Below the pieces are notes generated by a model that was given only the letters and a program-made list of their open reading frames with translations, did no database searches and was not told where the DNA came from. From IMG/VR virus record IMGVR_UViG_3300009431_000014, positions 5,909 to 69,908 of that record: a stretch of DNA of 64,000 nt. The stretch is one strand, 5' to 3'. Positions 2,617 through 62,872 of the stretch are shown here, in pieces (position 1 is the first letter of the stretch; every line of letters starts with the position of its first letter). The stretch is from a virus. The translations under genes and the position numbers were made by a program.

Positions 2617-3340
2617 TGACAAAGTAGGACAGATAGGTTTCAGAACAATGGACATTATTCAGAGCTACAGTCTCTATGCTGTACCTCACTACCTAAGGAA
2701 GTTCTACCCACTCCAGATTGTGAAGCCTGGAGATGTAGTTGTAGATGCAGCTTGTGGGTATGGTGAATTGGGACAGGTTCTCTATGTGAATCGTAGTGGT
2801 CTCAAACACTATTATGGCTTCGATGTAGATCCGAAGAAGATCGAGAGTGCGAAGCAGCATGTTAAGAAAGAACACTTCCAATATGTAACCCGTGATCTGA
2901 GAGATCCTTTACCGATAGAATACAATTCTGTAGATGTTTTTATCAGCGAAGAATTCATCGAGCACGTCAATAAAGAAGATGCTGAGAAGTTCTTGGGAGA
3001 GGTTTACCGTGTATTGAAGCCAGGAGGTACCTTTCTGTTGAGTACTCCTAGACAATACGAAGGTATCACAGAACGGTTAGATATCGGGCATCTTTATGAA
3101 TGGGGATACGAAGAGCTCATGTGTAAACTTGTGACCATGGGGTTCCACGTTCTAGAAGCTTACGGTTTAGGATTCTACGAGAGAATCAACACGTTGCCCG
3201 ACGAGTTATTCAAGGAAGATAAACTTTATCAAGCGATGCGGAAGTTCTTACCGAATCAGTTCACCAAGACTCTAGCAGCCTTGATTCACCCAGAGAAAGC
3301 GAACACGTTATATCTCAAGTTAGCAAAGGAGGAAGTATGA
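2606..3340 (+). CDS. Class I SAM-dependent methyltransferase
   Basis: VVDAACGYG, YGFDVD, EFIEHV, RVLKPGGTFLLSTP. Confidence 0.88.
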   Translation: MKDNDKVGQIGFRTMDIIQSYSLYAVPHYLRKFYPLQIVKPGDVVVDAACGYGELGQVLYVNRSGLKHYYGFDVDPKKIESAKQHVKKEHFQYVTRDLRDPLPIEYNSVDVFISEEFIEHVNKEDAEKFLGEVYRVLKPGGTFLLSTPRQYEGITERLDIGHLYEWGYEELMCKLVTMGFHVLEAYGLGFYERINTLPDELFKEDKLYQAMRKFLPNQFTKTLAALIHPEKANTLYLKLAKEEV

Positions 3341-3609
3341 GTCGGATTCAATTAGGAGATCAGGTAAAAGACACTGTCACAGGTTTCAAAGGAGTTGCAG
3401 TCTCGAAGACAGAATTCCTTCACGGTTGTTATAGGATCGGTGTACAGCCGAAGATGATGAAGGATGGGAAGTTGGAAGAAGCAAAGGTGTTCGATGAACC
3501 TCAGTTGGAGCTTGTGAAACCTAAGAAAGTTCCCAAAGGTACCAAGAAGAATGGAGGTCCTGCTCCTTATGCTATTAAGCAGAGAAGTGTGCCTATCCGA
3601 AGGAGGTAA
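3337..3609 (+). CDS. Hypothetical phage protein (SH3-like)
   Basis: LGDQVKDTVTGFKGV..GC..FDE pattern common in phage proteins; good RBS. Confidence 0.6.
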   Translation: MSRIQLGDQVKDTVTGFKGVAVSKTEFLHGCYRIGVQPKMMKDGKLEEAKVFDEPQLELVKPKKVPKGTKKNGGPAPYAIKQRSVPIRRR

Positions 3610-40455: not shown

Positions 40456-42264
40456 ATGGATTTCTTCGGATTCAATAAACAGAAGGATAAGATCTTTAAG
40501 AAACCGATAGATGTGCCTGTGGGTACAGCTAAGAAGATGTTTGATCCTGCACAAGCTCAGGACATCATGAAATATATAGCTTCTACTGGCTCTTATCTTG
40601 ATTCGAATCAGATGAGACAATATATCGCTAACGCACTAGCAATCGGGTACTTCAGAAGAACATTCTACAGAGAGTGCGAAGCTTCACTAGAACATCCACT
40701 AGTACTCGGAGCTGTGTTACTCTATGTAGATGCAGTAACAGCTATGAGCTCACTTACCAATAGATCAGTCTGGGTTACTTCCGAAGACAAACAACTTGAG
40801 AATCTACTCAATCAATTCTTAGAAGATGTCAGTGTTGATGAACGTCTCCGTGATTGGGCAGGTCAATTAGCAGAATATGGTGACTACTTCATCGAACCTA
40901 TAGGTAAGGACGGATTAGGAGTCACTTACCTAGATGATAATATTCATCCAGCTGATATGGAACGTATAGACATCAATGGTAGACTAGAAGGTTTCGTACG
41001 TACTGGACAATATGGTCAACAGACTACAGTCGAATCATTCTTAGAACCACCTTGGAAGTACGTTCATTTCCGTACATTCGGCTTGAGGAAGCGTACAATG
41101 CATACGACCTTCGGACTGTTCGGGCAACCAGATCAAGGCGTACAGTACCAAATTGTACAGGGAAACCAAGGTTATAGAGTTACTACTCGTTATGGAACAC
41201 CTATTATAGCACCTTCAGTGCCAGTATTCAAAAGACTCAAAATGTGTGAAGATAGTGTATTAATGAGTAGATATACAAGAGGAATACTATGGTATCTATA
41301 TCATATCAAAATAAAAGGAGGCAACTTCGACTCTGCTTCAGCTCTAGCTAAGGCTTATGCTACTCTACTTAAGAGAAGACAATCGATGTCCGTAGATGGA
41401 TCAGATCAACAGTGGAAGGATCGATTCTCACCAGTGTTCGGTCAAATTGAAGATGTATTCGTACCTGAGTCGGATGATATGGAAGTTACGGTAGATAAAA
41501 TGGGTGGTGAACCAGACATAAGAGCTCTCGCAGATATTGATCTGCTTACTAATCAATTACTCGGAGCACTGAGAGTTAGTAAGTCTATGCTGGGAATTAC
41601 AGATGATCTACCTGGAGCATTCGGTGAGAGTGCAGCTAGACGAATAAGTATTAACTTCGCTAAGAATGCACACACATTACAGGACGCACTTAATGCTGGT
41701 CTTAAGAGACTCTGTCAGATACACCTTGCTTATCTCAATAAGAATCCTGACCCGAGTAGATTCGAATTGAACTTCGCAGCTATAAGCTCAGCTGAAGAAG
41801 AGGAGCTCAAGAATGGTTTAGATACGGGGGTTGATGTAGCAGAGAAATTAATAGAGCTCATTGGTTCTCAAGTAGGTGAGGAGAATCTCAAGAAGGGTGA
41901 GCTATTAGATTACATCAACCAGAAGATACTTAAGTTGGATGATCTTGACCTAACTAAGTTAGTGAAGAACCCAGAGGAGTTAGATTATGCTCTCCAAGAT
42001 ATTAAAGCTAAGGAGTCATTCAAGAAAAGATTGCCTAAGTCAATTAGTGGAGATCTGTATTCATACTTACCAGTAGTGAATGGGAAGAAGACGGAATTGA
42101 CAGAAGCTCAGATAAAAGCTAAGGTTGATCCTAAGTCATTGAACCAGCCGTCTCAAGTATTCAAGCTCAATGAGACAGGCAAGCTCAGTAAGATCACAAG
42201 GGAATGGAAGCCTAGCAAGTTGAAGCTTAATATTAAGGAAGAGAATCAGGAGGCAAATAAGTGA
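40456..42264 (+). CDS. Portal protein (T4 gp20-like)
   Basis: Follows terL; YGDYF, YVHFR, RYG.PI, LK.CEDSVL.SR..R, EDVFVP, AL.V.KS.LG. Confidence 0.8.
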   Translation: MDFFGFNKQKDKIFKKPIDVPVGTAKKMFDPAQAQDIMKYIASTGSYLDSNQMRQYIANALAIGYFRRTFYRECEASLEHPLVLGAVLLYVDAVTAMSSLTNRSVWVTSEDKQLENLLNQFLEDVSVDERLRDWAGQLAEYGDYFIEPIGKDGLGVTYLDDNIHPADMERIDINGRLEGFVRTGQYGQQTTVESFLEPPWKYVHFRTFGLRKRTMHTTFGLFGQPDQGVQYQIVQGNQGYRVTTRYGTPIIAPSVPVFKRLKMCEDSVLMSRYTRGILWYLYHIKIKGGNFDSASALAKAYATLLKRRQSMSVDGSDQQWKDRFSPVFGQIEDVFVPESDDMEVTVDKMGGEPDIRALADIDLLTNQLLGALRVSKSMLGITDDLPGAFGESAARRISINFAKNAHTLQDALNAGLKRLCQIHLAYLNKNPDPSRFELNFAAISSAEEEELKNGLDTGVDVAEKLIELIGSQVGEENLKKGELLDYINQKILKLDDLDLTKLVKNPEELDYALQDIKAKESFKKRLPKSISGDLYSYLPVVNGKKTELTEAQIKAKVDPKSLNQPSQVFKLNETGKLSKITREWKPSKLKLNIKEENQEANK

Positions 42265-49565: not shown

Positions 49566-50441
49566 ATGAGAAAGCTAGCATTGTTAGCATTGGTTCTGTG
49601 TTTCGCATTGGGTGTGGGAACTGCACACGCAGACATCATGGACAACCTCGTCATCAGGTCTGGAGGAAAGATCATCCTACAGAATGGTGCGAACACTTTA
49701 ATCACATCACAGTCAGGGGATATTCGGTTAAGCCCGATCACTGGTGATGTACAGATCCTGGAGTTCAATGGTAGAGCTGCGAGTCTTGAGTTCGTTGGTA
49801 GTGCAGATACAGCAGCCATCAGTTACACGGATGCAACCAATACGCTTGATTTTGGTAACACAGGTATTGCGACCACTGGCGGTATCGCTCTCACAGGCGG
49901 TGCGTTTAGTGCAGCGAGCTTGACTGCGGATACAGGTGATATCACTGCTACTCTCGGTGACGTGATCGTGAGTGCGGGTGGTGTGACTGTAGACCTCGGG
50001 AATATCGTAGCTACTTCAGGTGGAGTTGAAGCAGGAGCGATCGTTACTGGTGGAACAGGTGTTATAGCAACCACTGGTAGTGTCGTAGCTTCAGCAGGTA
50101 GCGTGGATGCAGCGACAGATATTTCATTCGGTGAAGCACTCGTAGGTAATGTGGCAACACTAACCTGTGCTACGCCTGATGCACTTAGCTTGAATGTATT
50201 CGCAACGATGGTAACCTCGACTACGGCAGCAGACGTATTGAACCTCGCTGACGGAGTACCAGGACAGATCGTTCTGATTTGCTACGTCGCAGAGACTGCT
50301 GGTGGAGATAACTTGGTAATTACTCCAGCGAATCTCGGTACAGGAACAACCGTCACATTAGCAGCTCCTGGTGAGTTTTGTGAGTTGATTTTTGATGGTA
50401 CGAATTGGCAAGTAAAAGCAACAGATGGTGTGTTAGCATAA
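49566..50441 (+). CDS. Gly/Ala/Thr/Val-rich beta-structured protein with a Sec-like signal peptide
   Basis: MRKLALLALVLCFALGVGTAHA leader; repetitive ATxGxV segments; ends LIFDGTNW. Confidence 0.65.
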   Translation: MRKLALLALVLCFALGVGTAHADIMDNLVIRSGGKIILQNGANTLITSQSGDIRLSPITGDVQILEFNGRAASLEFVGSADTAAISYTDATNTLDFGNTGIATTGGIALTGGAFSAASLTADTGDITATLGDVIVSAGGVTVDLGNIVATSGGVEAGAIVTGGTGVIATTGSVVASAGSVDAATDISFGEALVGNVATLTCATPDALSLNVFATMVTSTTAADVLNLADGVPGQIVLICYVAETAGGDNLVITPANLGTGTTVTLAAPGEFCELIFDGTNWQVKATDGVLA

Positions 50442-50456
50442 CATACTTCTTAAATT

Positions 50457-50483
50457 TGAGAGGTGACCCCACCTCACCTCTCA
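50457..50483 (+). other. Perfect 10-bp hairpin directly 5' of the twister ribozyme
   Basis: TGAGAGGTGA / TCACCTCTCA; no U-tract. Confidence 0.65.
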
Positions 50484-50536
50484 GATCAATGCAGCCATAG
50501 CTGGTCACAAGCCCAGTTGAGAGATGCAGAGTGGTC
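50484..50536 (+). ncRNA. Twister self-cleaving ribozyme (P1 type)
   Basis: GAT C^AA TGCA GC CATAG CTGG TCACAAGC CCAG TTGAGAGA TGCA GA GTG GTC: P1 GAT/GTC, P2 TGCA/TGCA, P4 CTGG/CCAG, pseudoknots CAC/GTG and GC/GC. Confidence 0.85.
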
Positions 50537-50556
50537 AAAGATTAAGGGGTAAGATT

Positions 50557-50886
50557 ATGATGCTGACAAAAGAACAGATGGAATTTCTTCGAGGTGTACA
50601 TTACGGAGGTTGTATGGCTGAGCAGTACTTGAAAGCTAATGAGGGAGAGTCTATCGAAAGATTCTTCGAGCTCCGAACACAGCCTTATCAAGGTGAATTC
50701 CATAAGCACTTCCGAGCAGGAGCATGGAGAGGACTACTACATATATTGAATGTGGTCGGCTATTTTAGAAAGCATAATCTTAAATGGGAAGAGTTATTCA
50801 ATAAACAGAATCCTAAGCAAGAGGATAATCCAGAACCATGGGTTCAGGATCCAGACTATTGGAAACAATCAGGAGGAGAGAAATGA
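50557..50886 (+). CDS. Hypothetical protein
   Basis: Start placed at ATG 50557 because 50524 lies inside the ribozyme. Confidence 0.55.
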   Translation: MMLTKEQMEFLRGVHYGGCMAEQYLKANEGESIERFFELRTQPYQGEFHKHFRAGAWRGLLHILNVVGYFRKHNLKWEELFNKQNPKQEDNPEPWVQDPDYWKQSGGEK

Positions 50887-53042
50887 AGAAGATAAAGCAG
50901 ATTGTTGAACGCTTTGTAGCGAAGGGTACTATTCTCGAGGCGGATCGCAAGAAGTTATCAGAAGGAGTATTGTGCAAGGTTAAATACCCTATCTGTAACG
51001 TAGGTGAGCTTAATAAAAATAATCGTATGTATGAATGGGCAGTATGGGACGGTGTAAGCCAAGACCAAGATGTCCAGGACAAACTCGGCAATAGGACTAT
51101 GTTCGCTCAAGAGGAGCACCCTGAAGAGGGTTCTTCCACTCGGACAGACAGAATAGCTGGTATCGTTACTGAGATTGTCGAAGATCGTGCGAACAGCAAA
51201 GTCCATGCAATCTTTGAGATCTTAGATACTCCATACGGTCGAATCATCGATACATTGTTGAAAGCGAACTGCGGTATTGGAGTGTCCACTCGAGCAGAGG
51301 GAGAACTTGACGAGGTAGAGGAAGACGGTAAGAAATACCATCGAGTTATCCCAGAGAAGTATAAGCTCGTGACGGTCGACTTTACAGCAGATCCATCGAC
51401 CTACGGAGCTTACCCAGAATCTGTTGAGCAGAACATTGTCACCATCGTGCAGAAGGGGATCCAAGAGGAGAAGCTCGATCAGAAGTTCGCTATCACGCTA
51501 CTCGAGGGGTTCAAATGCAAAGATGGTAAATGTCTGCTTGAGACGTTGAAGAAGAACGAATCGTTGGAGTCCGTTCTTGAGCTTGAGGTAGACGCATACG
51601 GCAAGAAACACAAGGTCAAGGATATGCTGGAGAAACTCAGCGATGAGCAAGCTTCTGATATGTTCTCTATGCTAGCGGAAGAGATGATGCAGTCAGGTCT
51701 TCTAGAGGGTGACCTCCCAGATGTCACCGAAGAACTCAAGAAGTTCTTCGAGATTAAAGAGCTCGGTGAGGGAGTCACACTTACCGCAGAAGGTCCAGAT
51801 ACAATGAGTTTTGACATCAACGGTAAGAAGTATGAGTACTTTGGAGTTGAGAAGGGTTGGATGGAGAAGATCAAGAAGATGCTCAAATACGGTCAGGGCT
51901 TCAATGCGATACATTGGTTGAATAAGTTCGTGCCTAAAAAGAATATCTACCGTATCGAGGGTGAAGGTAAGAATATGAAACGAGTCCCCATCGTTGCCCA
52001 AGAGGAATCAGTTAAAGAGAACCACGAGGGCTTAGTGAAAGCTATCAAGCAGTTCGGGGTAACTATCAGTTCCAAAGATGGCGACTTCAACAGTGCTCCA
52101 GATGAAATAGAGGATCTCGAAGTGAAGGATGGTGTGCTGTATCTGACACCTCGTGGAGGGAATGTCATACCTTATCGAATCGGTTCTTGGGATCAAATAG
52201 GTGACAATGCGGTTACACTTAAAGCAGAAATCGGTGAGTCAATCAAGGAAGGACTTGCTGAGGTGGATTTCGCAACGCTACTTGCTAATATCAAGAATGT
52301 GACCAAGGATGCGATTCTCAATAAGGATGAACAGAGACTTCTCAAGGAATCCAAGACAGTTGTTGACTTCATCGAGAACGCACTGAGCTTAGTTAAGAAG
52401 TATCGTGAGCATGAGGTGTTGGCTGAATCGACTACAGAGACTCTCAAGGAGAACGCAGAAGGTCGTATTGGTGAGATCACTGAGCGATACGCAACAGATG
52501 TGATGGAAGCTGAGATAACTCGTGTTAGACTGGCGACACTCTGCAAGGAGATCGATAAGCAGTTTGAACAGTTCAAGAAGGATCATGAAGCTCAGGTGAC
52601 CCGTATGGTTGAAGATCACCAAGCGGAGATTACGGAAGCCAAGAAGTCTATCGCAGAGAAGACTGTTGTGGAGATCAAGAAGGTTTATGATTCCAAGATG
52701 AAACAACTCCAGAATAAGTTTAATAAAGAGACGAAAGCTCTTGAGACCAAGTGTGCTCAGGAGATTTTTAATAAAACAGTTGTGGAGACTGCAATCGCAG
52801 ATTCAGGATTGCAGTTGCCAACGAAAGCTGTTGATGTGCTGAAGCAGTGTTCATCCCGTGAGGAAGTGAACAAGATGATCGCTGAGTTCAGAGTTCGATT
52901 AAAAGAGAGCCTACTACACTCTGGTGGGGTTTCCGAAGTGAAGGTCAATGAGACCGTACCGTCTACCGATGACTCTATTATCGGTGGGAAGATGCTTAAT
53001 GTAACTAAACGTCTTATCAAAGACGTTTCTAAAGGTTCATAA
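50883..53042 (+). CDS. Prohead protease (T4 gp21-like) fused to a long scaffold-like coiled coil
   Basis: LNKNNRMY, EEHP, ILDTPYGRII, IGVSTRA.G, TVDFTADPST; immediately upstream of the capsid gene. Confidence 0.85.
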   Translation: MKKIKQIVERFVAKGTILEADRKKLSEGVLCKVKYPICNVGELNKNNRMYEWAVWDGVSQDQDVQDKLGNRTMFAQEEHPEEGSSTRTDRIAGIVTEIVEDRANSKVHAIFEILDTPYGRIIDTLLKANCGIGVSTRAEGELDEVEEDGKKYHRVIPEKYKLVTVDFTADPSTYGAYPESVEQNIVTIVQKGIQEEKLDQKFAITLLEGFKCKDGKCLLETLKKNESLESVLELEVDAYGKKHKVKDMLEKLSDEQASDMFSMLAEEMMQSGLLEGDLPDVTEELKKFFEIKELGEGVTLTAEGPDTMSFDINGKKYEYFGVEKGWMEKIKKMLKYGQGFNAIHWLNKFVPKKNIYRIEGEGKNMKRVPIVAQEESVKENHEGLVKAIKQFGVTISSKDGDFNSAPDEIEDLEVKDGVLYLTPRGGNVIPYRIGSWDQIGDNAVTLKAEIGESIKEGLAEVDFATLLANIKNVTKDAILNKDEQRLLKESKTVVDFIENALSLVKKYREHEVLAESTTETLKENAEGRIGEITERYATDVMEAEITRVRLATLCKEIDKQFEQFKKDHEAQVTRMVEDHQAEITEAKKSIAEKTVVEIKKVYDSKMKQLQNKFNKETKALETKCAQEIFNKTVVETAIADSGLQLPTKAVDVLKQCSSREEVNKMIAEFRVRLKESLLHSGGVSEVKVNETVPSTDDSIIGGKMLNVTKRLIKDVSKGS

Positions 53043-53059: not shown

Positions 53060-54532
53060 ATGTTAGACGTAAAGAAATTAGCGGAACAACGCAGAACGGA
53101 GCTCCGCAGACGTCAGGTTGAGTCTCTTGGTCGTTGGAAACCCTACATCGACATTGTAGAAGGCTTCTACAAGGATGAAGGTAAAGAACTGAAAGAATAT
53201 CAGAAGGCGAACATAGCCCAGTGCTGTGACAACCTTTTTGATTTCTATGTTCTTAGTAAAGTCAACGAGGGACTCTCCGAGGCGACTACTTCAGACGCAA
53301 TTGCGTTTGCAAGGCAGATGCTCCCAACTATCCCTGCATTGCTACCGAGCTTGGTTGCAGACCACGTATCTATCGTTCAGGCGATTGACAGACCTCAGGC
53401 TCAGGTCTATTATCTGAACGTTAAGGCTGCTACTACAAAGGGCAACATAACAGCAGGTGATACACTCATCGGGGCAACAACAGGTCATGCTGCAAGTGAA
53501 GGTGCAAGAGGTTACGCATCAGACGTGGTTTATTCGGAAGCGAATATTCCAGGTACAGGTGCTCAGACCCTAACACTGGATCCTGTCGCTAACCTACCGA
53601 TGATCGCAGGTTCGATCGTAGTAGTAGCTACTACCACCGTTGCAGCAGTCCAGGCTATTGAAACATTCTCAGATAACGGTGATGGCACGCTAACTGGTGA
53701 TAGAGGTTCAACTGGTACTTACACCGTAGCAACGGGCATCGTGATCTTAGATGCAGGTGTTGGTAATACTGTAGACGCTGTCGATACAGCCGTAACTTAC
53801 AGATGGAACGTTGAATCCTACCCAGAGGGAATTGGCGGACTCGACCTCGAAGTTACCTCAAGTAACGTCGATGCGAGAGTATTCCCGTTGAAACTCAACT
53901 ATAGTGTAATGTCAGCAATCTTGCTCCAGAAGGTGCATGGCTTCGTGCTGGCAGATGAGGGTATGAAGTTCTCAACTCAGGAAATCAGATTTGCAATCGA
54001 TCAGCTAGTATTGAATGAAGCTCTTGTAGCTTCTCAGGCTGCTGGTGCTGCAACATCTCCTGGTAACTTCGATACCGCTATAGGAACAGGTCAGGAGTGG
54101 ATTTGGAGAGCTCATCAGATCAAAAGGTACTTCAGCAAAGGATCAGCTAACATCTTTGCGAAGACTCTACGTGCACAAGCGAATGTCATCATCGGTGGCA
54201 TCAACGTTTGTTCATTAATAGAGCAGTTGCCTGAATACAAACCTGCTGCAGGAATTGGTACGAAACCGCCTGCAGGTCCTTATGTACATGGTACATTGGG
54301 TTCAAGGTTAGTGATCTGCAATCCGTTCTACAATGCAGATACTTATGTTCTCTGTTTCCGTGGGGACAACTATCTGTATGCAGGATTGATTTATGCTCCA
54401 TACGTACCGTTATATGCAACCGACCCAGTCACATTGGCGAATTTACAAACCCAGCGTGGTTTCATGTCAATGGCTGCGATCAAACGCATCAATGATGGTA
54501 TGTTTACTTACGGCACAATCTCGAATTATTAA
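53060..54532 (+). CDS. Major capsid protein (T4 gp23-like)
   Basis: L.A..VSIVQAI..P..QVYY, EIR..ID, G.L..R..V..NP, AGLIYAPYVPL. Confidence 0.9.
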   Translation: MLDVKKLAEQRRTELRRRQVESLGRWKPYIDIVEGFYKDEGKELKEYQKANIAQCCDNLFDFYVLSKVNEGLSEATTSDAIAFARQMLPTIPALLPSLVADHVSIVQAIDRPQAQVYYLNVKAATTKGNITAGDTLIGATTGHAASEGARGYASDVVYSEANIPGTGAQTLTLDPVANLPMIAGSIVVVATTTVAAVQAIETFSDNGDGTLTGDRGSTGTYTVATGIVILDAGVGNTVDAVDTAVTYRWNVESYPEGIGGLDLEVTSSNVDARVFPLKLNYSVMSAILLQKVHGFVLADEGMKFSTQEIRFAIDQLVLNEALVASQAAGAATSPGNFDTAIGTGQEWIWRAHQIKRYFSKGSANIFAKTLRAQANVIIGGINVCSLIEQLPEYKPAAGIGTKPPAGPYVHGTLGSRLVICNPFYNADTYVLCFRGDNYLYAGLIYAPYVPLYATDPVTLANLQTQRGFMSMAAIKRINDGMFTYGTISNY

Positions 54533-54558
54533 TATTTAATTCGAGTAATAGACTTCTC

Positions 54559-54591
54559 AGTTGGGAGGAGCAATCCTCCTCCCAACTTTCT
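54559..54591 (+). terminator. Intrinsic terminator after the capsid gene
   Basis: 12-bp stem AGTTGGGAGGAG/CTCCTCCCAACT followed by TTCT. Confidence 0.8.
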
Positions 54592-55010: not shown

Positions 55011-55700
55011 ATGACCAAGAATGAAATCGTAGATTGGATCAGGAATAACTATTTACCTATCCAATTAGCCACGGCTACGGAGACGATGGAACAACATGTG
55101 GATACCACTATCCGTTATTGGAACACGCACTCTGCGTACTCTATCTTAAGGAATGTTGATGTGAGTTACACGGATAAGTTCAAGGAGGTTCCTACAGATA
55201 TCAAGACAGTCGTGGAAGTGATGCCGAACGATTTCCAAGATGATTACTTCGCTAACCACCCAATGTATATCTTGCTCGGGTATGTAACGCTCGACAGGTT
55301 CACTCAGGACTTCATCTTGATCTCGAATACTTACGAAGCTTATCGGAGATTCCTGAACGCAGACTTCAAATGGAATTTTCAACGAACTGAAGACCCAGCT
55401 GTTGGAGGCACAATCTATTTCCAGAACATCCCGAGAGCGGTCACTAAGATGACCATTAATGGGTTGAAAAGAATCTTACCTGAAGAGGATATTAAAGATG
55501 AACATATCCTAGAATGGATTTTGGAATACTCTCGTGCGTTGGTTGAGATCAGTGAAGGTGTGATCTTAAGAAAATCAGGGATGATCGGTATTCAGAATGA
55601 CGGTACTGATCTTGTACAGGAAGGTACGACTAAGGTAGATGCATTACAAGAACGCCTACGCCAAGAGGCGAGATGGGCAGTTCTAGCGACGAGGATTTGA
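55011..55700 (+). CDS. Putative neck / head-tail adaptor (gp13-like)
   Basis: Position after the capsid gene; WILEYS.AL...EG..LRK..DG..L..EG pattern. Confidence 0.55.
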   Translation: MTKNEIVDWIRNNYLPIQLATATETMEQHVDTTIRYWNTHSAYSILRNVDVSYTDKFKEVPTDIKTVVEVMPNDFQDDYFANHPMYILLGYVTLDRFTQDFILISNTYEAYRRFLNADFKWNFQRTEDPAVGGTIYFQNIPRAVTKMTINGLKRILPEEDIKDEHILEWILEYSRALVEISEGVILRKSGMIGIQNDGTDLVQEGTTKVDALQERLRQEARWAVLATRI

Positions 55701-61310: not shown

Positions 61311-61934
61311 ATGATAAAACCTAAGCAGTCTATAGCGATGAAGAAGCGGTATGCTTCTGGTTATGTGAATCCTAGGAAGGGAAAACCTTCCTGGAATACA
61401 GATAAATCGCTATCTCCTACCCATCGGTTGAATCTATCAGTCTCCCATAAGAAGAGATGGCGAGATCCTGAGTACCGAGAGCGAATGCGTGTCGCACATC
61501 TCGGTAACCAGTCTCACCTAGGGATGAAGTGCTCGAAGGCTTCTAGAACAAGGATGAGTCTCGCTAATAATGGGAAGGGTGGTAGAGGACGAAGAGGGTA
61601 CTTCCACTCAGCCAAGAACAGTTGTTCCATCTACTACCAGTCTTCTTATGAGTTAAGAGCCTATATTAAGTTGGAGGAAGACTCGACGGTTGTCAGCTTC
61701 GGCAGGTGTAGATTCTTCGTGCACTATCTTTTAGACGGGTTTGTCAGGAGATATACACCAGATATTATGGTAGAGTTCGTGGATGGTAGAGAGGTTATCA
61801 TCGAGGTCAAATCTGATTGGGTGCTGCGACATAAAGAAGCTTCTCGGCATCTGGGACTTAAATTGAAAGTGCTAAGGGAATACTGTGATTCGAATGGGTT
61901 GGATATGGAATTATGGACGGAGGAGGACTTATGA
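61311..61934 (+). CDS. NUMOD3 + TnsA-like PD-(D/E)XK endonuclease (probable homing endonuclease)
   Basis: KGKPSWN/AHLG repeats; YQSSYEL..YTPD..IEVK..WTEEDL. Confidence 0.75.
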   Translation: MIKPKQSIAMKKRYASGYVNPRKGKPSWNTDKSLSPTHRLNLSVSHKKRWRDPEYRERMRVAHLGNQSHLGMKCSKASRTRMSLANNGKGGRGRRGYFHSAKNSCSIYYQSSYELRAYIKLEEDSTVVSFGRCRFFVHYLLDGFVRRYTPDIMVEFVDGREVIIEVKSDWVLRHKEASRHLGLKLKVLREYCDSNGLDMELWTEEDL

Positions 61935-62872
61935 TTATAGCCTTCGATTGGGATAATACTTTGTTCAGAATGGGTGCTGATTACACCATTGGCGAGCCTA
62001 TACAGAGTGTTATTGACACCTTGAAAAGATTATACGAAGAAGGACATACGATTATTATCTGGTCTTGTAGGACTGAAGATCAGATAGAACCTGTCCTCAA
62101 AAAGTATGCAATTCCTTGTCATCAGCTTAATCAGAAATCTCTAGAGAAAGCTGACATCTATCAATCTCCTACCGATAAAATTCATTACGATGTGTTAATC
62201 GACGATAAGACAGTCAACCCCTATGGAGTAGAAGACCTTTATGATAGAATTATGGCAACTTATGATATTCGTAATAAAATCACTACTCTTGGTGGTTGTA
62301 CTATTGATAATCATGAGTCTCGTAGATCGATTCGGCTAGAGACTCAACTTCAAGAGCTTGATTGGAAGCAAGCATTAGCTACTGGGATGATTGGGTTATC
62401 TATGTTAGGAGGCTTCGATTCACCAGAAGCTCTAGCCAAAGCAGTCGGGAAGCCTGCTGTAGTGAGACCAGTTAAAGATCCTGACATGGTAGCGATGGTT
62501 ATTGCAGGTGAAGCAGCAGGTGAAGGTGCTAAAGGAATGCTTGCTGTAGCCTGTGTGGTTCAGAATAGAATGGTTGGCGGTAAGACAGCGAAGAGTATTG
62601 TAGCTGCACCCGCACAGTTCAGTGCTTACGCAGATAAAGCACTAATGAAAAGGAATTATAAGGATGTTAAGGACGAAGCTGATAAACTTGCGGATCAACT
62701 TGGAACTCTTCAAGATATCACTGGTGGTGCTACTCATTATGTGGCGAAGTGGTTATATGACAAAGCATTGGCAAGTGCGGAATGGGCTAAGAAGAATAAC
62801 GTTACCTGGATTCGTAATATGGATAAAACGAAGGTGATTGGCAAGCATGTCTTTATGAAGGAGAAGTCATGA
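61931..62872 (+). CDS. HAD-like domain fused to SleB/Hydrolase_2 cell-wall hydrolase
   Basis: IAFDWDNTL, IIWSCR, LIDDK (HAD); IAGEAAGE..GMLAVA.VV.NR..QFS..GGATHY..IGKHVF (SleB). Confidence 0.8.
   Translation: MIIAFDWDNTLFRMGADYTIGEPIQSVIDTLKRLYEEGHTIIIWSCRTEDQIEPVLKKYAIPCHQLNQKSLEKADIYQSPTDKIHYDVLIDDKTVNPYGVEDLYDRIMATYDIRNKITTLGGCTIDNHESRRSIRLETQLQELDWKQALATGMIGLSMLGGFDSPEALAKAVGKPAVVRPVKDPDMVAMVIAGEAAGEGAKGMLAVACVVQNRMVGGKTAKSIVAAPAQFSAYADKALMKRNYKDVKDEADKLADQLGTLQDITGGATHYVAKWLYDKALASAEWAKKNNVTWIRNMDKTKVIGKHVFMKEKS

Follow-up and report, generated by a model that had tools for sequence, protein, structure and literature searches.

A predicted P0-bearing type-P1 twister ribozyme ahead of the prohead protease and capsid genes of an uncultured T4-like phage

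Twister ribozymes are a class of self-cleaving RNAs that was reportedly described by Roth et al. in 2014. Thousands of them are known, many near phage genes, and reviews call their role elusive (PubMed Central [PMC] articles PMC6765202 and PMC5408937). The A after the cut and the G after helix P2 serve as general acid and general base, and mutation of either residue is damaging (PMC11662667). An auxiliary stem-loop, P0/L0, was present in about 10% of the twisters assayed; it lies immediately 5′ of the ribozyme and is not required for catalysis (PMC11662667). Here we describe a predicted twister with an upstream hairpin at positions 50457 to 50536 of a 64-kilobase (kb) stretch of DNA, called the window, which is the whole of what was analyzed. 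The window is part of a 69.9-kb IMG/VR virus record (IMGVR_UViG_3300009431_000014; estimated completeness, 36%), and its source is an uncultured T4-like phage.

The element resembles the Rfam type-P1 twister (RF03160) in having AA after the cut, P2, GCC, both pseudoknots, a predicted P1 formed from the two ends, a P4-closed loop of the form U-C-N-C-A-A-G-C, and a 3′ G-A-G-N-G. It differs from that family in the missing P3, in an A-U rather than a C-G middle pair of pseudoknot T1, in the C at position −1, and in a P1 of three pairs. In architecture, in lengths, and in the upstream hairpin it is like the 46 P3-less CAC/GUG twisters that we collected from viral contigs. The nearest subfamily, unlike the element in the window, has a P1 of 7 base pairs (bp), GCA for GCC, U at −1, and other flanking genes. 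The hairpin corresponds to twister P0/L0 and to hatchet P0, both of which stand immediately 5′ of the ribozyme or cut and are dispensable for catalysis (PMC11662667, PMC4604424). The glmS ribozyme is a further likeness, since self-cleavage in an mRNA leader gives a downstream message with a 5′-hydroxyl (5′-OH) end and then altered stability, which in glmS means degradation (PMC6765202). The glmS ribozyme needs a metabolite cofactor, and we saw no sign of a ligand here. Like an intrinsic terminator or a 3′-stabilizing stem-loop, the hairpin is stable, contains G+C, and comes soon after a stop codon. Unlike an intrinsic terminator, it has no U-tract, and the 3′ end would arise by self-cleavage while the downstream genes are still transcribed.

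Identity of the ribozyme

We searched the window with the Rfam twister-P1 covariance model (RF03160), which aligned over model positions 1 to 68 of 68 at 50483 to 50537 on the + strand with 36.8 bits (E = 7.4e-7 in a search of 201 nucleotides [nt]; E = 2.4e-4 when both strands of the full 64 kb were searched). Only one other match came up in the window scan, with an irrelevant E-value of 0.74. Apart from the middle T1 pair, where the change is compensated, the element has every nucleotide that the Rfam consensus line marks as conserved, and the loop L4 shows one difference from the consensus UCCCAAGC, at that same T1 position. We also built a second covariance model from viral sequences. At least 107 unique full twisters were parsed from viral contigs, and 46 distinct P3-less members, with the window excluded, made up an alignment (A3) from which the model R1 was derived. 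R1 gave a single match to the window, at 50480 to 50540 on the + strand, with 57.1 bits and an E-value of 6.6e-16. A core pattern allowing up to two mismatches matched the window once, against 0.02 matches expected from shuffles. The predicted fold of the intergenic region, made with a program that cannot represent pseudoknots, had −40.2 kcal/mol on the + strand (z = −4.0; as good in 0 of 200 shuffles), and z was −0.3 on the − strand.

The catalytic residues A50488, A50489, and G50529 are all present, and the T1 and T2 pseudoknots are present by complementarity, so that both would be expected to pair in this RNA (Table 1). A first-pass annotation, made from the sequence letters before this analysis, had placed a type-P1 twister at 50484 to 50536 with a cut between C50487 and A50488. 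The RF03160 and R1 alignments put the predicted scissile bond at the same place, and the coordinates proposed for the hairpin and for every ribozyme element agree base for base with the sequence. Together with the comparison with more than 160 viral twisters, the two model searches uphold that assignment; judged by sequence, 50484 to 50536 is a genuine type-P1 twister of a form that recurs in viral contigs.

The outcome of the check with Rfam twister-P1 that the first-pass annotation had recommended depends on the threshold: with E-value reporting the match is significant and full length, and at the gathering threshold there is none, which formally is the covariance-model outcome named there as refuting the assignment. 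The gathering score of RF03160 is 67.2 bits, and a default Rfam scan lists nothing at this locus. The low score is explained by the short P1 and, for the larger part, by the missing optional P3, which costs 16 model positions. When we applied RF03160 to six other viral loci, eight of eight twister matches fell under the gathering score (43.4 to 56.7 bits). This score is an operational cutoff and no structural feature, and it is no guide for phage twisters. A chance resemblance with no ribozyme, to which the low Rfam score and the lack of conservation in related phages (see below) would lend themselves, is in our view extremely improbable: the window-wide E-values are 2.4e-4 for Rfam and 6.6e-16 for R1, the helices and both pseudoknots are complete, a 31-nt core stretch from GGUC to GAGUG is identical in the window and in two viral loci (L035 and L138), and eight viral stretches match the pattern of the subfamily nearest to the window (L035, L138, L072, and L133 to L137).

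Covariation, cleavage site, and upstream hairpin

The CAC/GUG pairing of T1 had been read in the first-pass annotation as a compensated variant of CCC/GGG. We examined it with a two-by-two test in viral contigs, in which the core pattern was combined with a parser requiring AA, a 4-bp P2, and GC upstream. CAC with GAGTG gave at least 121 unique matches, at least 107 of them parsed as twisters, and CCC with GAGGG gave at least 94, with at least 60 parsed. The scans for the uncompensated combinations were complete and gave 52 unique matches for CAC with GAGGG and 20 for CCC with GAGTG, with 1 parsed in each. In the single parsed CAC/GAGGG case, the true GAGTG lies within the matched stretch; such an internal GAGTG occurs in at least 8 of the 52, and several others resemble permuted twisters with GAGTG upstream. 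Match lengths in the compensated sets cluster at 26 to 31 nt among the matches listed, whereas those in the uncompensated sets are scattered, save where near-identical sequences, none of which parses as a twister, form clusters. Because compensated forms are abundant and uncompensated ones essentially absent in viral contigs, the middle T1 pair covaries. The compensated reading is thus supported by at least 107 and at least 60 parsed twisters against 1 and 1, and by these counts CAC/GUG is a very common form of T1 in viral contigs.

Alignment A3 shows covariation in the helices as well. P2 is 100% paired by construction and is uninformative; the outer two P4 pairs and the inner four P1 pairs, imposed by neither the pattern nor the parser, behave as helices. 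The outer two P4 pairs were 100% paired, with the outermost being GC in 20 sequences, AU in 19, CG in 5, and GU in 2. The inner four P1 pairs were 72 to 91% paired, with five to six pair types each. None of 500 shuffles reached the covariation score of the alignment, and 84% of its cells were paired versus at most 44% in slid registers.

Two features of the element had raised doubts when it was first noticed, the C at −1 and the short P1 (GAU/GUC, three pairs only, one of them G-U). Among the matches listed, C at −1 occurs in 2 of 107 CAC-set twisters, including that of the window, and in 13 of 60 canonical CCC-set viral twisters, and P1 has three or fewer pairs in 43 of 107 viral twisters when counted in strict register. 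McKinley et al. (2024) report that any of the four bases is tolerated at −1 and that imperfections in P1 are without effect (PMC11662667), and P1 is described as dispensable (PMC11662667, PMC5408937). According to the review by Gebetsberger and Micura, P1-less twisters cleave at a near-wild-type rate, and the −1 nucleoside makes hardly any contacts (PMC5408937). Because P1 is reported to be dispensable and its imperfections to be without effect, a 3-bp P1 need not be disqualifying. Both doubts are answered by the published assays, and the first also by the frequency of C at −1 in the canonical set (13 of 60 of the matches listed).

The hairpin upstream of the ribozyme has a predicted energy of −14.8 kcal/mol, which becomes −17.8 kcal/mol when it is lengthened by three pairs to 50454 to 50486 and covers the P1 5′ strand. 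Its sequence occurs once in the window. The window has just two perfect hairpins with 10 bp or more, this one (50457 to 50483) and that at 54559 to 54587; 50 shuffled versions had 0.54 on average. The hairpin end at 50483 adjoins the P1 start at 50484, which makes it a P0/L0 stem-loop as defined for twisters (PMC11662667), and the sequence confirms that the perfect 10-bp hairpin ends 4 nt ahead of the predicted cut, as had been claimed.

We determined how often viral twisters carry such a hairpin with a criterion of our own (a stem of at least 6 bp ending at most 12 nt before −1), which differs from that of PMC11662667. Among the matches listed, the CAC set had a hairpin at 58 of 106 twisters, compared with 397 of 1,998 random positions in the same loci, and the 45 nt upstream of the listed CAC-set twisters had a mean fold of −13.6 versus −7.1 kcal/mol (p = 5e-35). 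The independent CCC set gave the same picture, with hairpins at 45 of the 60 twisters listed versus 195 of 1,129 random positions (Fisher p = 5e-21). The distance from the hairpin to −1 in the listed viral twisters peaks at 3 to 4 nt, which is the length of a P1 strand. The resulting 55 to 75% of listed viral twisters compares with the published figure of about 10%, a comparison that is indicative only, as the criteria differ. In the subfamily nearest to the window, the upstream hairpin has changed from GGAA/UUCC to GGGA/UCCC with pairing kept, which is a single event.

A separate observation concerns the hexamer UGAGAG, which occurs twice, in the P0 5′ arm (50457 to 50462) and in the J4/2 linker (50518 to 50523), so that the P0 3′ arm could pair with either copy. 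The repeat is possibly a misfolding trap or a switch; the subfamily keeps the linker sequence independently of P0.

The position of the hairpin, 15 nt past the stop codon of a 291-amino-acid (aa) gene (50439 to 50441), and its terminator-grade stability of −14.8 kcal/mol would also suit a terminator or pause site of that gene, with the twister lying in the 5′ leader of a separate transcript. We regard this as very unlikely. The hairpin lacks the U-tract of an intrinsic terminator (the next bases are GATCAATGCAGCC), there is no T-run in the DNA (GATCAATGC), and a terminator scan neither listed nor flagged it. Across the family, among the matches listed, the hairpin abuts P1 by 3 to 4 nt. There is no room for a promoter between the hairpin and the cleavage site, because only 4 nt separate them. 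The sole promoter-like match in the gap (50532 to 50561; 9 of 12 positions) lies downstream of the ribozyme, and 13 such matches were found versus 12.2 in shuffles. The T4 late-promoter motif TATAAATA had three matches versus 2.4 expected, none of them near the locus.

Predicted cleavage products and competing readings

We think it probable, on the evidence of the sequence comparisons, that the element is a genuine P0-bearing twister that cuts itself at C50487/A50488 and gives the upstream and downstream cistrons independent stabilities. The ribozyme lies inside a run of more than 27 kb of + strand genes and so would be part of a polycistronic structural-gene mRNA. As membership in the family predicts, the RNA would take up the twister fold and undergo internal transesterification at the C50487/A50488 bond. 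What lies upstream of the cut would carry at its 3′ end the 10-bp P0 hairpin and then a 4-nt tail (GAUC) with a 2′,3′-cyclic phosphate. Such a short tail past a stable stem, with no 3′-OH, is a poor substrate for poly(A) polymerase and for the 3′ exonucleases of bacteria. The RNA downstream of the cut would have a 5′-OH, enclosed by the folded ribozyme and 57 nt upstream of the ribosome-binding site of a 109-aa open reading frame (ORF); for twisters, this end of the 3′ fragment has been described as buried (PMC8782182). In this way the upstream and downstream cistrons could have independent stabilities without any need for transcription to stop, and the protease/capsid message, made up of the 109-aa ORF and the protease and capsid genes, might form a discrete unit that extends to the hairpin at 54559 to 54587.

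The first-pass annotation had suggested such an outcome, with a hairpin-capped upstream mRNA, a 5′-OH protease/capsid mRNA, and a tuned stoichiometry, and the anatomy of the locus and the enrichment of hairpins in the family are consistent with it. Processing by a ribozyme with an altered fate of the mRNA is a hypothesis already in print for bacterial ribozymes (PMC6765202). In the literature searched, which covered few of the subscription journals, we found no paper in which P0 or phage twisters are given a role. A search of sequencing runs listed no RNA run that contains the phage, which is no evidence either way, and three metatranscriptome runs of the same study contained next to none of its sequence words.

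Several observations, in addition to the low Rfam score, weigh against the reading as a self-cutting P0-bearing twister. P1 has only three pairs including the G-U, and its 5′ strand can extend P0 instead. The P0 3′ arm (CUCUCA) is complementary to UGAGAG at 50518 to 50523 within the ribozyme (−8.2 kcal/mol), a pairing that competes with P2. Because P0 can cover the P1 strand and pair with UGAGAG, cleavage may be partial or may depend on the order of folding. In a high-throughput in vitro assay, P0-bearing twisters were cleaved less on average (0.40 versus 0.85; PMC11662667). Whether a 5′-OH would stabilize or destabilize the downstream RNA would depend on the RNases of the host. The 5′-OH product of the Bacillus glmS ribozyme is degraded, not protected.

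The related phages weigh on the same side. A query with the protease as a single protein found no viral relatives, and a search with a capsid alignment gave 14 viral and 13 metagenome loci. The protease-capsid pair is common to these relatives, at 26 to 80% capsid identity; the genes directly upstream of the protease are not. RF03160 found no credible twister in 10 related viral records searched whole (best match, 13.7 bits, E = 0.07, on the opposite strand), Rfam found none in nine related metagenome loci, and R1 found none in 27 related loci (best match, 13.8 bits, E = 0.5). The closest of the relatives collected (L139; 80% capsid identity) is a 2.8-kb contig that ends short of the twister region. 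To judge from these contigs, the element seems to have been gained in one lineage, as a module that travels widely; the contigs of the closest relatives are too short to tell.

None of six proteins of the window had a tblastn match in five of the subfamily loci (L035, L072, L134, L135, and L138), and blastn of 49566 to 51200 against annotated phages at a distant setting found no match. A near-identical core occurs, with neighbors unlike those of the window, in eight unrelated viral stretches and in two contigs of metagenome-assembled genomes (MAGs). The two MAG contigs, the only ones that matched the subfamily pattern, have the same flanks and are uninformative on the host.

These distributions bear on whether the twister and its P0 are a recent selfish or neutral insertion that cleaves poorly or not at all and has no role for the head genes, a reading that we consider rather unlikely. 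It would account for the lack of the element in all related loci examined and for the near-identical core in unrelated viral contigs and in two MAG contigs next to other genes, and the weak P1 and the lower in vitro cleavage of P0-bearing twisters (PMC11662667) would fit it as well. However, the catalytic and structural positions are all intact, and the element fits exactly into an intergenic gap in the coding orientation with the stop-hairpin-ribozyme-Shine-Dalgarno layout of the family. Moreover, P0 hairpins are strongly enriched, and their sequence varies while pairing is kept (GGAA/UUCC to GGGA/UCCC).

An active ribozyme might instead work mainly at the level of translation, with the cut freeing the ribosome-binding site of the 109-aa ORF from a mask at 50444 to 50453 and thereby turning on translation of the genes downstream. 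The predicted precursor does contain a 10-bp helix of 50444 to 50453 with 50543 to 50552, and the unpaired probability of the Shine-Dalgarno sequence is 0.01 to 0.04 in the precursor versus 0.67 to 1.0 in the 3′ product alone. For a 10-nt window over the Shine-Dalgarno sequence it is 0.12 with the native 5′ fragment, 0.47 with shuffled 5′ fragments, and 0.79 in the product. However, the fold comes from a program unable to model pseudoknots, and the 10-bp helix (−9.3 kcal/mol) would keep the cleavage products joined. Masking is also no trait of the family: over 52 viral twisters the value was 0.51 with native and 0.52 with shuffled 5′ fragments and was lower with the native one in 20 of 52 (p = 0.54), so that unmasking of translation is rejected as a general mechanism at the family level. 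We judge this reading unlikely for the window, and we continue to favor independent stabilities of the two cleavage products.

Gene order, family context, and significance

All gene-like ORFs of at least 110 aa in the ORF list from 36.5 to 64 kb lie on the + strand. The label "head operon" used in the first-pass annotation is a fair one, as the portal, protease, capsid, and head-tail adaptor-like genes are all on this strand (Table 1). The product of the 291-aa gene upstream of the hairpin had a weak match to Pfam Phage_depo_C (E = 1.4e-4; 22.6 bits, under the cutoff of 25) and no family match in a PHROG search. From the stop codon of this gene to the ATG of the 109-aa ORF the gap is 115 nt. 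The ribozyme end is followed by 8 nt, the Shine-Dalgarno-like motif, and, 6 nt on, the ATG. The 109-aa ORF had no match in Pfam, PHROG, and Atlas searches or by tblastn in 16 related or twister-bearing loci. The protease, called as a gene product of 719 aa, belongs with homologues most of which, as listed, carry PF03420.

Table 1. Coordinates of the ribozyme, the hairpins, and the neighboring genes in the window
Feature	Position	Strand	Basis or remark
Portal protein	40456-42264	+	
291-aa gene, function unassigned	49566-50441	+	ORF list
P0-like hairpin	50457-50466 / 50474-50483	+	10 perfect Watson-Crick pairs; 7-nt loop CCCCACC
Ribozyme 5′ part	50484-50487	+	P1 5′ strand GAU (50484-50486) and −1 nucleotide C50487; RF03160 and R1 alignments
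Twister core	50488-50536	+	Sequence, RF03160 and R1 alignments
AA	50488-50489		A50488 is the general-acid position
P2	50490-50493 / 50525-50528		UGCA / UGCA, 4 Watson-Crick pairs
GCC	50494-50496		Pseudoknot T2: G50494, C50495 with G50511, C50512
Linker AUAG	50497-50500		P3 absent; P5 absent too
P4	50501-50504 / 50513-50516		CUGG / CCAG, 4 Watson-Crick pairs
Loop L4	50505-50512		UCACAAGC, closed by P4
Pseudoknot T1	50506-50508 / 50531-50533		C50506-A50507-C50508 with G50531-U50532-G50533
J4/2	50517-50524		UUGAGAGA, between CCAG and UGCA
GAGUG	50529-50533		G50529 is the general-base position
P1 3′ strand	50534-50536		GUC
Shine-Dalgarno-like AAGGGG (50545-50550) and ATG (50557) of 109-aa ORF	50545-50559	+	Sequence, ORF frame
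109-aa ORF, first gene of predicted 3′ cleavage product	50557-50886	+	Frame without stops
T4 gp21-like prohead protease with long C-terminal extension	50883-53042	+	phrog_207 head maturation protease, E = 8.2e-23
gp23-like major capsid protein	53060-54532	+	PF07068 Gp23, E = 9.4e-27; phrog_138
12-bp G+C-rich hairpin, then UUUCU	54559-54587	+	27 nt 3′ of capsid stop codon
Head-tail adaptor-like protein	55011-55700	+	

The region of the hairpin downstream of the capsid gene folds with −32.8 kcal/mol (z = −5.8; equaled in 0 of 200 shuffles). This hairpin is likely a terminator or a 3′ stabilizer and, on the folding prediction, is a candidate for the 3′ boundary of the protease/capsid mRNA. A simple terminator scan did not flag it. 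A further hairpin of 9 bp (54520 to 54545) covers the capsid stop codon; with the 12-bp hairpin it brackets the end of this gene. Further along, a 319-aa ORF (61913 to 62872) has an N-terminal part like phosphoheptose isomerase (phrog_1238, E = 5e-24) and a C-terminal part like endolysin (phrog_938, E = 7e-15).

The capsid gene of the window is uninterrupted. In several relatives, group I introns interrupt the capsid-gene region: L148 has eight Rfam Intron_gpI matches in 1 to 2309, seven above the gathering score and one below it and truncated by the contig end, and L147 (1514 to 2909) and L149 (5214 to 7368) have two each. By tblastn, the capsid match is broken up in L149, L007, L009, and L010.

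Viral twisters in general sit in short gaps between genes of the same strand. Among the matches listed, 89 of 107 parsed twisters have the end of a same-strand ORF within 300 nt upstream (median stop-to-cut distance, 33 nt), and 93 of 107 have an ORF start within 250 nt downstream (median, 33 nt after GAGTG), with a Shine-Dalgarno-like motif in 76 of those 93. As far as the crude ORF picks allow, the genes downstream vary widely and many are small; we looked for one common to phage twisters and rejected the idea, the commonest families being phrog_4681 (13 of the 93 listed) and phrog_4921 (11 of 93), with FtsK-like proteins, terminase, anti-repressors, and more among the others. Because these genes are diverse, twisters seem to have no special tie to head genes and rather to favor short same-strand gaps.

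The viral loci gave some further observations on ribozymes. Many viral contigs have more than one twister within a few kb; these twisters share a strand and occupy separate intergenic gaps, with three in L313 and two each in L020, L022 to L025, L040, L065, L067, L088, L099, L107, L113, L119, and L121. In L074, a Pistol ribozyme (2831 to 2897; 59.9 bits, gathering score 34.5) lies about 415 nt upstream of a same-strand twister (3313 to 3364), an instance of the known clustering of self-cleaving ribozymes. CAC-loop twisters in L162, L170, L178, and L181 have GCAGAGTG upstream of a closed hairpin and then GTAATGCGGC, and they resemble circularly permuted twisters with P1 closed by a loop. The subfamily locus L035 has a tRNA gene (1073 to 1146; 73.4 bits) about 1.2 kb from its twister.

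The ribozyme class and its setting in phage genomes are known; new is one more member, which default annotation thresholds miss. As the Rfam gathering score missed both the twister of the window and eight of eight twister matches in other viral loci, default annotation under-reports phage twisters. The locus offers a clean setting, with one ribozyme in a one-directional array of structural genes, ahead of protease and capsid genes, and hairpins before the cut and after the capsid gene.

More tentatively, and with less confidence than we have in the account of this one locus, P0 and twister could together be a general phage module that makes mRNA ends while transcription continues. A cut 3 to 5 nt past a stable hairpin would give the upstream cistron a terminator-like, exonuclease-resistant 3′ end with a cyclic phosphate, and the downstream cistrons, in this locus protease and capsid, would receive a 5′-OH buried in a compact pseudoknot, so that neighboring genes of a single transcript could differ in lifetime. 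The enrichment of P0 (55 to 75% of the viral twisters listed versus about 10% reported, under differing criteria) may be the signature of such a function. Most of the viral twisters sampled have a P0 even though it lowers cleavage in vitro, and this suggests that it acts once the RNA has been cut, for instance by protecting the 3′ end. What this analysis adds is evidence at the level of the family that the hairpin is a regular partner of the twister in viral contigs, and this makes the idea of a protected 3′ end worth testing.

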